A DNA stretch of 4,633 nucleotides from a virus (lineage: Duplodnaviria > Heunggongvirae > Uroviricota > Caudoviricetes). Positions 1-4,633 of this stretch are shown piece after piece. Numbering within the stretch: position 1 is the stretch's first letter; each line of letters starts with the position of its first letter. The stretch lies in IMG/VR virus record IMGVR_UViG_2667527914_000002. One strand, written 5' to 3'. The notes beneath the pieces were generated by a model that worked only from the letters and a program-made list of their open reading frames with translations, ran no database searches and was not told where the DNA came from. The translations under genes were made by a program, and so were the position numbers.

Positions 1-82
1 CGAGGTAATCCCCCAGAGAAGTCAGTGGGTTACGCAGAGAATCGTAACGGGATACCAGATCAAGAGCCTGTCCAATGTGCAT
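1..82 (-). CDS. insG: IS4 transposase, N-terminal 27 codons only (rest of gene lies beyond window start)
   Basis: ATG at 82-80 (minus) followed by MHIGQALDLVSRYDSLRNPLTSLGDYL, open to the window edge. This matches my recollection of the E. coli IS4 transposase InsG N-terminus. Absent from the ORF track because it is truncated by the window. Confidence 0.75.
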   Translation of the reverse strand, partial: MHIGQALDLVSRYDSLRNPLTSLGDYL

Positions 83-116
83 AAAAAAATCCGGAAACAA
101 GTGAGCGTTTCCGGAT
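83..116 (-). terminator. Intrinsic-terminator-like hairpin plus T-tract inside the IS4 end, immediately upstream of the transposase ATG
   Basis: Perfect 10-bp stem (plus-strand 89-98 atccggaaac and 107-116 gtttccggat) with an 8-nt loop. On the minus strand it is followed by TTTTTTT (89-83) and then the transposase ATG at 82. Confidence 0.5.
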
Positions 117-148
117 TCTTACACAGCCACTGGATCGGTCAACTGATC

Positions 149-166
149 CTTAACTGATCGGCATTA
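149..166. repeat. IS4 terminal inverted repeat (outer end at 166)
   Basis: 18 bp TAATGCCGATCAGTTAAG on the minus strand at the element boundary. Three GATC sites cluster at 133-136, 145-148 and 156-159 in and next to the repeat. Confidence 0.65.
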
Positions 167-1306
167 CACCACCGGGACGCGGATTCATATCTTCCAGGTC
201 GCGGCAGTCATTGGAAGAGTAAATTCCCCAGTTGATCCCGGTGGCGTAGGCTTCAAAACGGGACTTCATATCCCCGCGCAGTAACGCCCCGGCGTTAAAT
301 TTGGCGTAATAAACGCCCTGCTTACTTTTTCGTACCAGTCCGGTGTTGATCCGCTGTTCGATGCGGGTCAGATACGGCACCAGTGAATAGTTGATAAATC
401 CCAGCCCCAGCTCTTCGATATTGTTGAAGGTGGCGCGATCGGTGTTCTGCACCATGTGCAACGGCACCCGGAACAGACGACAGATTTCTTCCAGCTGAAA
501 CTTGCGGGTTTCCAGGAACTGACTGTCCTCGGCGTTCAGCGCCATCGACTTCCAGTCCAGCCCCATTTCCAGAATCATCGGGCGGTGAGCATTGCCAAGC
601 CCCGTGTGACACTCCTCAAAATCTTTCTTCAGACGCTCGTAAGCATCCGGCGTGAGCTTTTGTTCCGTACGCAACACACCGGATGTCACCGCACCATTAC
701 TAAACAACCTGGCACCGTGCTCCTCGGTTGCCGCTGCCAGTGAAATGGCCTCACGCGCATACGCAATGGGATTCAGCCCGACAAGTCCATCCAGCGTCAG
801 GGTGCGCACATGCCAGATTTCATTCTGGGTCAACACATCCACGGAACCATCCGGAAACGTCACCTGATAAACCGGCTGCCACTGGCTGTTCAGCTTCGGT
901 TCCACACAGCCCGGATCTATCGGAAGAAGCTCCACCACTTCTCCCAGTGCCTTTACCTTGTAGGCGTAAAAATTCCCCCGTAGACACAGGCAGACAATAA
1001 CCAGCTCCCAGAATTCCTGCGGTGTCATGTAGCCATTAGGTTTTGCCGAAACCAACTTATGCAGTCGTTCATCCACCGCCCGTGTTTTCAGGGTACCGCT
1101 GATTTTGTAGAGACTGCAGGGCAGCATACCAACAGACTCTGCCAGCACCCTGACGCAAGAATAGACCGCCGTCAGGCGCATGGCCCGCTGGCTACTGATC
1201 CGCTTTCCGGTATAGGTGTCGTATGACAGCCCGATAGCATCAGCAGTTCTGCTGGCGTGGTCACCGGCACATCGCTTTTTCGTTGAAATAATCCCGAAAA
1301 GAACAC
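150..1306 (-). pseudogene. Phage portal protein, HK97 family; apparently disrupted by an N-terminal frameshift and by IS4 insertion at the 3' end
   Basis: The 415-aa ORF (150..1397) contains portal-like conserved segments (RLTAVYSCVRVLAESVGMLP near the N-terminus, NDCRDLEDMNPRPGG near the C-terminus). Its frame has no credible start after the upstream ORF's stop. A GTG at 1306-1304 with GGAGGT 5 nt upstream opens a different frame encoding a portal-like N-terminus ([22 protein letters not shown]...) that stops at 1172. The last 5 codons (VMPIS) and stop at 150-152 are encoded by IS4 sequence. Confidence 0.75.
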
Positions 1307-1488
1307 TATTTACCTCCGCCGACAGACTGCCGTGTACGGTCGAGATATCGCGCCACCAGCCACGACCAGAACAGGCACAGCGCCCCGGCAACAACAAAAC
1401 CCGCCGGGGGATAAATCAGCCAGGCACCATACGCCAGCAAAAGCGCACCCAGCACGCCCACCAGAGGCGCGAGAATCAGCATGATCAT
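1306..1488 (-). CDS. Hypothetical small membrane protein (60 aa, two predicted transmembrane helices)
   Basis: ATG at 1488-1486 with GAGGT 5 nt upstream, starting 11 nt after the TerL stop. Its stop TAG (1308-1306) overlaps the portal GTG start (TAGTG). Sequence [60 protein letters not shown] has two hydrophobic stretches and a basic C-terminal tail. No homolog recognised. Confidence 0.55.
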
Positions 1489-1499
1489 AATTACCTCAG

Positions 1500-3233
1500 T
1501 TAAAGCGAGCGGATCCCGTAGGACTCAATGTGGTCAGACAGCGTGTCTTCTTTCTCGTACAGCATGGCTCTGCCAACCGCCATAATCAGCGCAACTGCAC
1601 CATCGATTTTGTTTTCCGCCTGCTCTTTGACGGGTTTCACCACATCATCGTTACCCGGCATGTTTTTGCCGACCACGTTGCCGATACACCAGGTCATGAT
1701 GGGATTGCCGTCATGATGAAAACGTCCCGATTCAATCGCTGCTTCCAGCTCTTTCATCGGATCGGACATATTGGTGAAGTTCTGGACGATAGTGACGGGA
1801 TTCAGGTCTTCATCAGCAAGGTCATGTGACAACCCGGTCGCCCCGAAGGGGTCGATGGGTGACTCACTGACCGGGCTGATTTTGTTCGCCGCTTTGGCCT
1901 CCTCGAGGATGTAGCGATAATCCACCTCCGCACCATCGGTAACGGTCAGAACGCCCATTTCCACCCATTTCTGAAAGCGTTCGGCTGTCCGTCGATCTTC
2001 ATTTTTCTCGACGCTGTACACCGTGTCATACGGTACCCAGAAACGCGGGGCCACACTGTAGTAATGCGTTTTACCGTCAATCTCGCGGGTATAAAGTCGC
2101 GCCATGCTGTTCATATCCAGCTTACGCGCCAGGTCAAAGGCCAGAATGCACGGCTGCCCCTCGAACTGCTCAAGGGTCAGTGATTTATCCTCGCAGCTCT
2201 GCCAGCTCACCAAGTTGAAATACGCCGAACGCGCCGACACCCAGATATTGAGGTGTTTTGTTTTAAAGACGTTTGCCAGACGGGCGTTATTTTTCGCACG
2301 CTGCTGCTGACTTAACAAAAATTCGCGATAAACCGACACGCCAATATTTGGATTGGCTTTTTCCAGCACCTGCGGGCCGGTCCAGTCGTCACCTTCATCA
2401 ACGGTATAGATGATCCCGAACAGTTCATCGTTAGGCACCGAGCCGTTGAGCATCTCGATGACTTCCCGCCGCTTGTCGTAGCACGGCCCCTCAATGTTGT
2501 ACCCGGCGGTGGTGATGGCCCACATCAGTGGCTGACGTCGCGCCCCCATCCCGGTAAGCATTGTGGTATAAAGCGCATCGGTGGCATGCTCGTGATATTC
2601 ATCAACCACGGCACAGTGGGGTGATGAACCATCACCTGGGTTGCCGATCAGCGGTTCAAACCGCGCGCCATCCTCCGGACGGTTCATGTTTGAGGCGTTA
2701 ACCTCAATCCCGAACGCTTCCGTCAGCATGGGTGTGCGTTTACACATCAGTCGCGCCGGGCGAAAGACTTCCCACGCCTGTTTCTCTGTCGTGGCACCGG
2801 AATACACTTCCGCGCCAAACTCGTTATCACAGGCAAAACAATACAGGGCAACACCGGCAGAGATTGCTGATTTGCCGTTCTTACGGGGGATTTCGGTGTA
2901 CACCTCCCGGAAGCGGCGCAACCGGGTGCCTTTATTGACCCAGCCAAACGCACAGCAGATCACAAATAGCTGCCACGGCTCCAGCGTGATGGGCATCCGT
3001 TTGAATGCCCACTCCCCCTTGGTGTGCGGCAACAGCTGAATAAATTTCGCGGCCCGTTCAGCCAGGTCCTTGTCGAAGCGGTAACGAAACGACTTACTTT
3101 TTTCCGCCATCAGGTCATCAAGATGGCGCTGGCAGGCCTGAATCACAAACTGGCAGGCAACAATCTTTCCGCGCACGACATCCCGGGCATACTGATTTGC
3201 AGCATTTACGTTGGGGTAAGATTTCCGGCTCAT
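1500..3233 (-). CDS. terL: Phage terminase large subunit (577 aa)
   Basis: ATG at 3233, TAA at 1502-1500. N-terminal ATPase domain with a Walker A-like P-loop (IPRKNGKS) and Walker B (CAVVDEYHE). C-terminal nuclease domain with acidic motifs ([22 protein letters not shown]). Size and motif order fit terminase large subunits. Confidence 0.92.
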
Positions 3234-3724
3234 GATTCGATAATTTTCAGAAACGGGTTAGTGGCTTTCTTCTGCCCCGCCAGGCCAATCAGACGCTGGC
3301 GGCTGCTGGGGTCGAGTCCGAGCATTGCCCCCGTGCTGCTCATCTCGGACTCCTGTTCTTTTTTGGCGGTCAGCTCCGGATTTTTGACCCTGCCGCCCAT
3401 TGCACCGGTGATGGTGTTGCCCTGTATGGCAATATTTTTCACGGCACGTCGCCAGAACTCATAGGCCACGCACCACCGCTCAAGTACCGCCAGGTCAGTC
3501 ACGCACAGCAGGCCCTGACCGCAGAGTTCTTTGGTTGTCAGTTGCCACATGATCGTGGCGAGAGGGAGATCTTCTTCAGCGAACCACTCTGGTGGCTCAA
3601 CACCTTTGATGGGCGTAAAAACAGGTTCATCTTTGTTCAGGGCTCGCTTGCCGGGGTTTCCGGCCAGCGCCTTGCGCGCCGTTGGCTTGGGGCGACGCCC
3701 GGAACGCCCCGCCGTTCCAGCCAT
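3230..3724 (-). CDS. terS: Phage terminase small subunit, P27 family (164 aa from ATG 3724; alternative GTG start at 3733)
   Basis: N-terminus [34 protein letters not shown] matches the P27-family TerS signature as I recall it. AGGAG lies 8 nt upstream of the ATG at 3724. Stop TGA (3232-3230) overlaps the TerL ATG (ATGA). Confidence 0.85.
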
Positions 3725-3763: not shown

Positions 3764-3823
3764 AAAAAAACGATGGGGCGGGCAGTCCGGAAGACGTCAG
3801 GTCACAGGGATTTGCCCCGCCCC
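3764..3823. other. Candidate cos / packaging-recognition region: GC-rich imperfect inverted repeat with adjacent A/T run
   Basis: Arms ggggcgggca (3775-3784) and tgccccgcccc (3813-3823) flank a 28-nt spacer containing the palindromes tccgga and gacgtc. A7 run at 3764-3770. It sits in the HNH-terS intergenic region (3725-3845), where cos lies in HNH-containing HK97-like phages. Confidence 0.35.
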
Positions 3824-3845: not shown

Positions 3846-4196
3846 TCACCGGATTCGTTCGCGCGCTGTTTTCGCTTTATGGCAGGGCCAGCACAGACTC
3901 TGCAGGTTGCTGTCTGCGTCTGTTCCGCCATGCGCTTTCGGGATGATGTGGTCGACGGTTTTCGCCTCGCTCACCACACCGACACGCAGACACAACTGAC
4001 ACAGACCTTTATCGCGCTTCAGAATACGGGCACGAATCACCGTCCATTTTGAGCCATAGCCACGCTGGTGGCGGCTCAGTCCGCGCTGGTGCTGCACCCA
4101 GCCTTCACCGCGATGTTTATCGCAGTAACCCGAACTGTCTGTGGTTGTACCTGCACATCCACGCTTACGGCAGGCACGTGGGATTAGTGATGGCAT
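3846..4196 (-). CDS. HNH endonuclease, phage packaging-associated (116 aa)
   Basis: ATG at 4196 with GAGGT 4 nt upstream. Cys-rich N-terminus (CRKRGCAG...GYCDKH), HNH-type motif VDHIIPKAHGG, then N...CWPCH. Position immediately upstream of terS is typical for cos-phage HNH proteins. Confidence 0.88.
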   Translation of the reverse strand: MPSLIPRACRKRGCAGTTTDSSGYCDKHRGEGWVQHQRGLSRHQRGYGSKWTVIRARILKRDKGLCQLCLRVGVVSEAKTVDHIIPKAHGGTDADSNLQSLCWPCHKAKTARERIR

Positions 4197-4238: not shown

Positions 4239-4633
4239 CTACTTAATGCACTGAGTGCGGATATACTCCTGTGCCCCTTCCAGTTGCATCTGCATCGTCA
4301 TCAGCCGCTCTCTGAGGGTGAAATAATCCCGTTCAGCGGTGTCTGCCAGTCGGGGGCTGGTTGCATTATCCACGCCGGAGGCGGTGGTGGCTTCACGCAC
4401 TGACTGACAGACTGCTTTGATGTGCAACCGACGACGACCAGCGGCAACATCAGCGCGCAGAGTTTCATTTTCAGCTTTCGCATCAGCTAACTCCTTCGTG
4501 TATTTAGCATCGAGTGCATTAACATCACGCTGTCTCTGCTGCATGTCAGTAATGGTTGCGTTCGCCAGCTTCAGTTCTCTTGCGTTTTTGTCGCGCTGCT
4601 CTTTGTAGGTAATGGCGTTATCACGGTAATGAT
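4239..4633 (-). CDS. Rz: Rz i-spanin (inner-membrane spanin subunit), 5'-partial; start lies beyond the window end
   Basis: Frame is open to the window edge. Translation [110 protein letters not shown]... is near-identical to phage lambda Rz as I recall it. Stop TAG at 4241-4239. Confidence 0.93.
4301..4483 (-). CDS. Rz1: Rz1 o-spanin (outer-membrane lipoprotein spanin subunit), embedded out of frame within Rz
   Basis: ATG at 4483 with AGGAG 7 nt upstream. [60 protein letters not shown] has a lipobox (VVGC, Cys20) and a proline-rich mature part, near-identical to lambda Rz1. Wholly inside Rz in a different frame. Confidence 0.93.

Follow-up and report, generated by a model that had tools for sequence, protein, structure and literature searches.

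In bacteriophage HK97, the gene for the large terminase subunit (terL; 505 amino acids, aa) runs directly into the portal gene, with no small open reading frame (ORF) between them. In bacteriophage lambda, the slot between A (terL) and B (portal) is occupied by the gene for gpW, a soluble head-completion protein of 68 aa. Other phage proteins are placed in the cytoplasmic membrane: T4 gp40 is a membrane factor that, together with the host protein YidC, lets the portal protein gp20 initiate proheads on the inner membrane; class II holins and the pinholin S21 are proteins of ~68–71 aa with two transmembrane domains and an N-in/C-in topology; and exclusion genes of the HK97 gp15 and T4 Imm type are sporadic and lineage-specific, with their own expression in lysogens. 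The present analysis concerns a 60-codon ORF that lies between terL and the portal gene in a 4,633-nucleotide (nt) stretch of DNA from a virus of the Caudoviricetes (IMG/VR virus record IMGVR_UViG_2667527914_000002; this whole stretch is referred to as the window), and that corresponds in sequence to ymfR of Escherichia coli K-12. An ORF of this kind was shown to be a standing part of the P27-type module, in which the genes for an HNH endonuclease, the small terminase (terS), TerL, the small protein, the portal, a protease and an HK97-fold capsid protein follow one another, in phages of both Gram-negative and Gram-positive hosts. In mosaic phage genomes, the small gene was also shown to be inherited with the portal gene rather than with terL.

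ymfR at the terL–portal junction

An earlier, sequence-only reading of the window had placed the ORF 11 nt past the terL stop codon behind a GAGGT Shine-Dalgarno sequence, with its stop codon overlapping the portal start codon and the portal ribosome-binding site (RBS) embedded in its last codons, and these junctions proved exact. On the minus strand, which carries all genes of the window, the terL stop codon TAA (1502..1500) is followed by the spacer CTGAGGTAATT and then by the ATG of the ORF (1488..1486). At the other end, the TAG of the ORF shares one base, G, with the GTG of the portal gene (TAGTG), and the final codons GGC GGA GGT AAA hold the portal RBS, such that GGAGGT (1317..1312) lies within Gly-Gly-Gly codons 57–59. 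The small gene is translationally coupled to the portal gene through this stop/start overlap and the RBS in its last codons.

The same reading had called the ORF unannotated-looking and had recognized no family for it, and on both counts it has to be revised. The window protein matches PHROG 502 (“membrane protein”) at an E-value of 2.8e-28, with residues 1–55 aligned to positions 3–57 of the 58-position profile, and the ORF is 98.6% identical at the nucleotide level to ymfR (b1150) of the e14 cryptic prophage of E. coli K-12, which is listed in the K-12 RefSeq annotation as “protein YmfR”, of 60 aa, between the remnants of terL and the portal gene. The ymfR region was found in 1362 of 5426 complete E. 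coli genomes. Homologues in PHROG 502 carry the names Sb3 (ST64B), SfII_03, phiKO2 Gp3 and PL1_3 (PL-1), and the product is annotated as a “putative integral membrane protein” in SfII and phiP27 and as a “membrane protein” in SfI, phiKO2 and ST64B. Every position of the core motif of the family, G..G..L..yGAW.iy.PAG(F/Y)I..G, is present in the window protein, and the three features that define membership of PHROG 502, namely the profile match, a hairpin with the core motif, and the terL–portal slot with portal overlap, were all found. Judged by its sequence, the window gene is YmfR, a member of PHROG 502 that is already catalogued, and the window adds no new entity. The window and e14 proteins share their length of 60 aa, their position between terL and portal, and the overlap with the portal gene, and they differ by three amino acid changes, all in the variable tail (TRQSVG in the window, TQSSVG in e14); the neighbours differ as well: in e14, deletions have left remnants of both, and in the window terL is full length and the portal gene is disrupted by IS4 and a frameshift.

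No functional study of, or functional statement on, ymfR or its PHROG 502 and DUF1056 relatives was found in the literature, in agreement with the sequence-only reading, which had left the function open. Papers that mention ymfR only list it, in tables of deletions, in the first round of an overexpression screen, or with other e14 genes whose expression rises under an SOS-inducing drug (PMC10012262). In public records, family members stand without annotation at the terL–portal junctions of PY54 (AJ564013, 2301–2492), SfV (U82619, 2289–2450) and SfIV (KC814930, ~2307–2483). The annotated portal start of SfV (2392) is probably too far upstream, and a GTG at ~2440 behind GAAGGGGGA fits better. 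Four GenBank entries (ON470584, ON470603, ON470580 and PQ793804) call the YmfR homologue “head-tail joining protein W”, because it shares the slot and the approximate length of lambda gpW; unlike gpW, YmfR is almost wholly membrane-embedded by prediction and has no match in Pfam, the gpW family included, and the label is, as far as the sequences go, a positional misannotation from lambda gene order without sequence support. In addition, GenBank OR844959, entitled “Enterococcus phage Efm 3-10” (1764 bp), is 96% identical to enterobacterial terL-ymfR-portal DNA and is probably a mislabelled or contaminant sequence.

The distribution of the ORF was followed in two samples of terL loci. In the first, which comprised 79 usable loci of close relatives chosen by the window terL alone, all 79 contained an intact 60-codon ORF after an identical 11-nt gap, and no frame-disrupting indels were seen, as the reading of the ORF as a gene had anticipated. 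The second comprised 78 contigs from Firmicutes chosen by similarity to the terL of Lactobacillus phage PL-1 (44–100% identity). The hidden Markov model (HMM) of the family was matched directly after terL in 64 of these, and a further 13 had a divergent two-transmembrane (two-TM) ORF of 46–67 aa in the terL–portal slot, giving a total of ~77 of the 78; in the remaining locus, the wrong ORF had been assigned as terL. The sequence-only reading had held that terL normally leads straight into the portal gene and that the ORF fills a gap; this is correct for HK97 but not for the P27-type module, in which the small ORF is the rule and not an unusual insert.

Database searches identified 166 cluster representatives at close range and 396 with a profile (E ≤ 1e-3), and the family loci came from viral contigs as well as from genomes of alpha-, beta- and gamma-proteobacteria, Ruminococcaceae, Yanshouia, Actinobacteria and others. 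Overall, the family occupies the terL–portal slot in thousands of phages. The 60-codon ORF is thus a genuine protein-coding gene, far beyond a chance ORF, given the match to PHROG 502, the numbers of cluster representatives in both searches and the intact frames in all of the terL-selected loci. Two antisense ORFs on the plus strand (1216..1503 and 1332..1484) were also considered; they are unsupported and are by-products of the GC-rich coding strand.

Among 100 distinct family proteins, 89 were encoded after a terL-like ORF, 93 before a portal-like ORF, and 85 between both. Among the 15 exceptions, several lie close to or at the end of a contig, and two that were inspected (L087 and L118) have only fragmentary upstream ORFs. 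These two and three others (L089, L093 and L098), all from genomes of Reyranella and Yanshouia, retain an intact small ORF and portal gene next to upstream ORFs that are fragmented or not recognizably terL; they may be decayed prophages or errors in metagenome-assembled genomes. No stand-alone cellular copy was found among the family loci fetched. Of 73 non-redundant complete loci, 85% show an overlap of 1 or 4 nt between the stop codon of the ymfR homologue and the portal start, and 45 have a Shine-Dalgarno-like motif within the 3′ end of this homologue.

In Lactobacillus phage PL-1 and Staphylococcus phage BM31, the gene order is terS, terL, small ORF, portal, protease and capsid, and the small ORF matches PHROG 502. 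More distant versions occupy the same slot. The SfV ORF matches PHROG 7105 and, weakly, PHROG 502 (E 5.7e-6); the divergent Firmicute versions match PHROG 1142 and PHROG 29012, and their alignment with the YmfR profile reached an hhalign probability of 91.8% (E 7.6e-7). One divergent Firmicute equivalent matches Pfam DUF1056 at E 0.002 with 18.8 bits, below the gathering threshold of 22.2, and the window protein itself gave no match to DUF1056 (PF06341) at E-values up to 1. DUF1056 and PHROGs 7105, 1142 and 29012 share with YmfR the slot, the size and the two-TM shape; the relationship is probably remote, at the level of a superfamily, and TM composition can inflate such scores.

The mosaic structure of phage genomes made it possible to compare pairwise identities of the small protein with those of TerL and the portal protein. 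In pairs with TerL at least 85% identical and portal proteins below 50%, for example SfV and SfII, the small proteins are 21–29% identical, whereas in pairs with portal proteins at least 85% identical and TerL below 50%, they are 55–90% identical; small-protein identity correlates more closely with that of the portal (Spearman 0.73) than with that of TerL (0.55). The break in SfV falls within the last ~25 codons of terL, so that the exchanged unit consisted of the terL tail, the small ORF and the portal gene.

Predicted hairpin, selection and expression

The sequence-only reading had described the product as two hydrophobic helices with a short basic tail, and hydropathy, structure prediction and charge counts over the family all agree with this description. 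The protein has two strongly hydrophobic stretches, with a mean Kyte-Doolittle value over 19 residues of up to 2.7. An AlphaFold2 (AF2) prediction from a 44-sequence alignment (mean predicted local distance difference test score, pLDDT, 74.5) gives a helical hairpin with a helix at residues 2–25, a turn at 26–28 and a second helix at 29–56. Over 145 family proteins, the mean number of Lys and Arg residues is 0.48 at the N-terminus, 0.05 in the turn and 1.47 in the C-terminal tail. Because positive charges are found toward the two ends of the protein and are almost missing from the turn, the positive-inside rule predicts an N-in/C-in topology in the cytoplasmic membrane, with the uncharged three-residue turn outside. 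The best conserved positions in the same 145 proteins are G14, G21-A22-W23, P28-A29-G30 and G35, on the helix ends that flank the turn, and G14, G21, A22, W23, A29, G30 and G35 are each conserved in 90–100% of them. The second helix also carries a stripe of small residues (G30/A34/C38/S42/A46).

Selection was estimated as the ratio of nonsynonymous to synonymous substitutions (dN/dS) by the Nei-Gojobori method with 27 distinct 183-nt enterobacterial sequences. The median dN/dS is 0.20 for codons 2–46 (the TM core; 216 pairs), 0.83 for codons 47–55 (the tail) and 1.64 for codons 56–60 (the portal RBS), where the pooled pN/pS is 1.06. The TM core is under purifying selection and the tail is not, and the bias toward synonymous substitutions that the sequence-only reading had proposed as a check is thus found in the core. 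The apparently invariant C-terminal Gly-Gly in the alignment of close relatives is explained by the last five codons, which carry the portal RBS; the portal Shine-Dalgarno sequence imposes a dual coding and regulatory constraint that mimics protein conservation. The C-termini across the family (GGK, GGE, GGD, EGG, KEG and similar) are largely dictated by this embedded sequence (1312–1320 in the window).

This pattern bears on the possibility that the ORF has no function as a protein and is a spacer or leader, the translation of which merely delivers ribosomes to a weak portal GTG. The tight coupling to the portal in 85% of loci, the nucleotide constraint on the last codons and the almost neutral evolution of the tail would all be expected of such a leader. 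Purifying selection on the amino acid sequence of the core, the recurrence of the same motif from E. coli phages to those of Lactobacillus and Staphylococcus, and the retention of a two-TM hairpin, which a pure leader would not need, argue against it so strongly that we regard it as highly improbable.

With respect to expression, no sigma-70-like promoter and no intrinsic-terminator-like site was found on the coding strand in positions 1000–2000. A “putative rho-independent terminator” annotated within the small ORF of SfII (2370–2419 of that locus, corresponding to ~1480–1431 of the window) was rejected: no terminator-like site is present, and the fold of the equivalent window RNA does not surpass those of shuffled sequences (z-score +0.8). 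The G+C content at third codon positions (GC3) is 0.67 for ymfR and 0.65 for terL. In e14, ymfR mRNA increased together with that of other e14 genes under an SOS-inducing drug, with a log2 fold change of 4.5 (PMC10012262). The lack of a promoter and terminator of its own, the GC3 value like that of terL and the SOS co-induction fit a late-operon gene on the packaging/head transcript, not an autonomous moron.

A moron of lysogenic conversion, expressed in uninduced cells and benefiting the host, for example by superinfection exclusion in the manner of HK97 gp15, is nevertheless what the PHROG 502 category (“moron, auxiliary metabolic gene and host takeover”) implies. This category appears to derive solely from the words “membrane protein”. 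It might also be argued that ymfR stays intact in decayed prophages with broken neighbours, such as e14, in which terL and the portal gene are truncated, and the window, in which the portal gene is broken; survival of a 183-nt target in young pseudogenized prophages is, however, the chance expectation. Like gp15 and Imm, YmfR would be a small inner-membrane protein encoded among late genes. Unlike them, it is near-universal in its module, coupled to the portal gene, without signals of its own and without a match in PADLOC, and it was not found away from terL and the portal. The properties of morons, namely their own promoter and terminator, atypical composition and sporadic distribution, were not seen in the window gene, and together with the SOS co-induction (PMC10012262) these differences make a moron improbable.

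Layout of the window and state of its prophage

The features of the window are listed in Table 1. The Rz/Rz1 pair is the end of the lysis cassette and lies upstream of the packaging genes. The likely start codon of terS is the ATG at 3724, on the basis of the length of the SfII homologue, and the terS stop codon overlaps the terL start by 4 nt.

Table 1. Coordinates of the genes and other elements in the window, and the evidence for each
Feature	Position	Strand	Evidence or remarks
Rz i-spanin, 5′ end beyond the window edge	4239..4633	-	Pfam Phage_lysis, 2.4e-45
Rz1 o-spanin, embedded in Rz	4483..4301	-	Pfam Rz1, 6.4e-20
HNH endonuclease of the packaging module	3846..4196	-	Pfam HNH, 1.6e-16; PHROG 144
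terS, P27-family small terminase	3230..3724	-	Pfam Terminase_4; PHROG 83
terL, large terminase, 577 aa, intact	1500..3233	-	Pfam TerL_ATPase and TerL_nuclease; PHROG 9
terL–ymfR spacer, 11 nt	1489..1499	-	Shine-Dalgarno GAGGT at 1497..1493
ymfR-like gene, 60 codons and TAG (1308..1306)	1306..1488	-	ORF; PHROG 502
Predicted TM helix 1, codons 2–25, conserved G11, G14, G21-A22-W23	1414..1485	-	AF2; hydropathy; conservation in 145 proteins
Predicted tight turn Y-P-P, codons 26–28	1405..1413	-	AF2; nearly uncharged family-wide, predicted periplasmic
Predicted TM helix 2, codons 29–47, conserved A29-G30, G35	1348..1404	-	AF2; conservation
Predicted cytoplasmic tail, codons 48–60, variable, mildly basic	1309..1347	-	Tail dN/dS; embedded GGAGGT
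Portal pseudogene, GTG start 1306..1304	167..1306	-	Pfam Phage_portal, 2.7e-107, on the downstream frame
IS4 element end	1..166	-	Inverted repeat 148..166; transposase start ~82, reading leftwards

The small ORF, terL, terS and the HNH gene are all intact, and the portal gene is a pseudogene, so that the window represents a decaying prophage. An alignment with SfII and ST64B revealed a 1-nt deletion between 1245 and 1244, ~20 codons past the portal GTG, which leaves an N-terminal frame of 44 aa (MFFSGLFQRKSD...) out of register with the main portal frame. Portal homology ends at ~167, where the IS4 end starts (cut at ~166/167), and the IS4 end replaces the last ~28 portal codons. The N-terminus of the transposase, MHIGQALDLV..., is read on the minus strand from ~82, and in 2591 E. 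coli genomes, loci annotated as “IS4-like element IS4 family transposase” share 98.9% identity with the IS4 end. The window is matched at 100% identity by five IMG/VR contigs, each across the part that it covers; one spans all of it, and four stop inside IS4.

Between the HNH gene and terS, a perfect 8-nt inverted repeat of G+C (GGGGCGGG / CCCGCCCC) is located at 3775–3782 and 3816–3823, with the arms 33 nt apart and an A/T run adjoining. A terminator scan made no call at this site, which could be part of the cos region or a long-loop terminator after the HNH gene.

Possible role in head assembly

Searches with the window protein returned nothing significant in Pfam (best match TctB, E 0.025, far short of the cut-off), nothing significant in NCBIfam, and nothing significant among sequences in the PDB (best E 0.044). 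A Foldseek comparison with viral models retrieved uncharacterized small proteins only, none at E ≤ 0.001. In PADLOC, no family was matched at E-values up to 1 by the window protein or by the SfV and Klebsiella homologues, and the PY54 homologue gave a chance-level match to LeoBC (E 0.42).

The sequence-only reading had suggested a holin or antiholin, superinfection exclusion or a small toxin, and these roles fit poorly, given the strict synteny, the coupling to and co-inheritance with the portal, the lack of a match to holin, defence or toxin families, and the lack of a promoter or terminator of its own. A broader form of this explanation is that YmfR is a late membrane effector apart from assembly, which would oligomerize and cause a proton leak or depolarization, time lysis in the manner of a holin or antiholin, or exclude superinfecting phages late in infection, and which merely lies in the late operon. 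Its size, predicted N-in/C-in topology with two TM helices, basic C-terminal tail and Gly/Ala-rich helix faces resemble those of class II holins and the pinholin S21; the stripes G11/G14/G21 and G30/A34/C38/S42/A46, with the conserved intramembrane core, suggest helix packing or oligomerization; an effector would also be consistent with constraint on the core but not on the tail; and the breadth of the family would be accounted for if the membrane target were one that Gram-positive and Gram-negative hosts share. YmfR nevertheless differs from class II holins in that no holin family in Pfam or NCBIfam matches it, nor does any toxin or defence family in Pfam, NCBIfam or PADLOC. It is never in a lysis cassette: in the window, Rz/Rz1 lie ~2.7 kb upstream, beyond HNH, terS and terL, and in the 4.9 kb of the PL-1 locus that were examined, the small ORF is surrounded by packaging and head genes only, and none of the features annotated there is a lysis gene. 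The charged residue of a dual-start motif is missing from the M-I-M start, which is not conserved either (MIL.., MFL.. and MLM.. in relatives), and TM helix 1 is strongly hydrophobic, unlike the signal-arrest-release (SAR)-like helix of the pinholin. The phages that carry YmfR have a separate lysis cassette. Lysis and exclusion genes are, moreover, usually shuffled and fast-evolving, whereas ymfR keeps one slot and follows the portal across phyla. On balance, a late effector is only slightly less probable than the reading favoured below.

The reading that we favour, with a probability of roughly 0.35, is that YmfR belongs to the head module as an accessory and would serve membrane-sited synthesis of the portal, rather than acting on the host as an effector; this reading draws on the gene order, the coupling and the substitution pattern. 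According to this model, a hydrophobic hairpin would be made just before the portal, by the same ribosomes, and its insertion into the membrane would bring the translating terL-ymfR-portal message, and hence new portal protein, to the inner membrane. Portal-ring or prohead initiation would thereby be placed at the inner membrane, in a role like that of T4 gp40, gp20 and YidC without homology. Only the membrane-embedded core would need conserving, as the substitution pattern shows. Irrespective of tail type, phages as far apart as those of E. coli and Lactobacillus retain the slot, the coupling and the portal linkage, which is why a role in the head module is favoured; recruitment to the membrane is the simplest version because only the membrane core is constrained. 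The likeness to T4 gp40 is one of proposed role only, as a phage membrane protein tied to portal or prohead initiation; gene order and size differ, and the comparison is by analogy, with no homology claimed.

Several points weigh against such an accessory. To our knowledge, the assembly of HK97-like heads has not been described as involving a membrane step, and a gene of this kind is missing from HK97 itself. Approximately 10% of family loci lack a recognizable terL or portal neighbour, although most of these are contig ends or have nothing but fragmentary ORFs upstream. The linkage to the portal may be partly mechanical, because two overlapping genes offer no neutral site for a crossover between them. 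A direct and specific contact between YmfR and the portal is unlikely, because the parts exposed to the cytoplasm are tiny and variable. Furthermore, the motif that is shared across phyla, G..G......GAW....PAG.I..G, exceeds the needs of a generic anchor and could reflect a specific intramembrane partner or an oligomer.

A stronger proposal, which we put forward only tentatively and consider rather unlikely, is that the whole superfamily of YmfR, PHROG 502 and DUF1056-like proteins is an unrecognized core component of the P27 module in phages of Gram-negative and Gram-positive hosts alike, and that the hairpin, made together with the portal in a single pass of the ribosome, is needed to initiate portal rings or proheads at the membrane, or for correct portal dosage. 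The probability left over by these explanations belongs to something not yet thought of.

The pattern that emerges is that of a near-universal membrane minigene welded to the portal gene in a very common head module, of which no description was found in the literature searchable. Examples of this module are found in e14, ST64B, SfI, SfII, SfIV, SfV, phiP27, PY54, phiKO2, and Lactobacillus and Staphylococcus cos phages. The question that YmfR poses is why a widespread head/packaging module keeps a membrane minigene joined to its portal gene, and its role is directly testable in E. coli K-12, which carries e14, and in inducible prophages such as ST64B and SfII. Should YmfR prove to act late on the membrane as an effector, such an effector would be conserved very broadly. 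If portal or prohead formation does need YmfR, the assembly of HK97-fold heads in this very large group of phages would include a membrane step like that of T4, and the “moron” label in PHROGs would be corrected.

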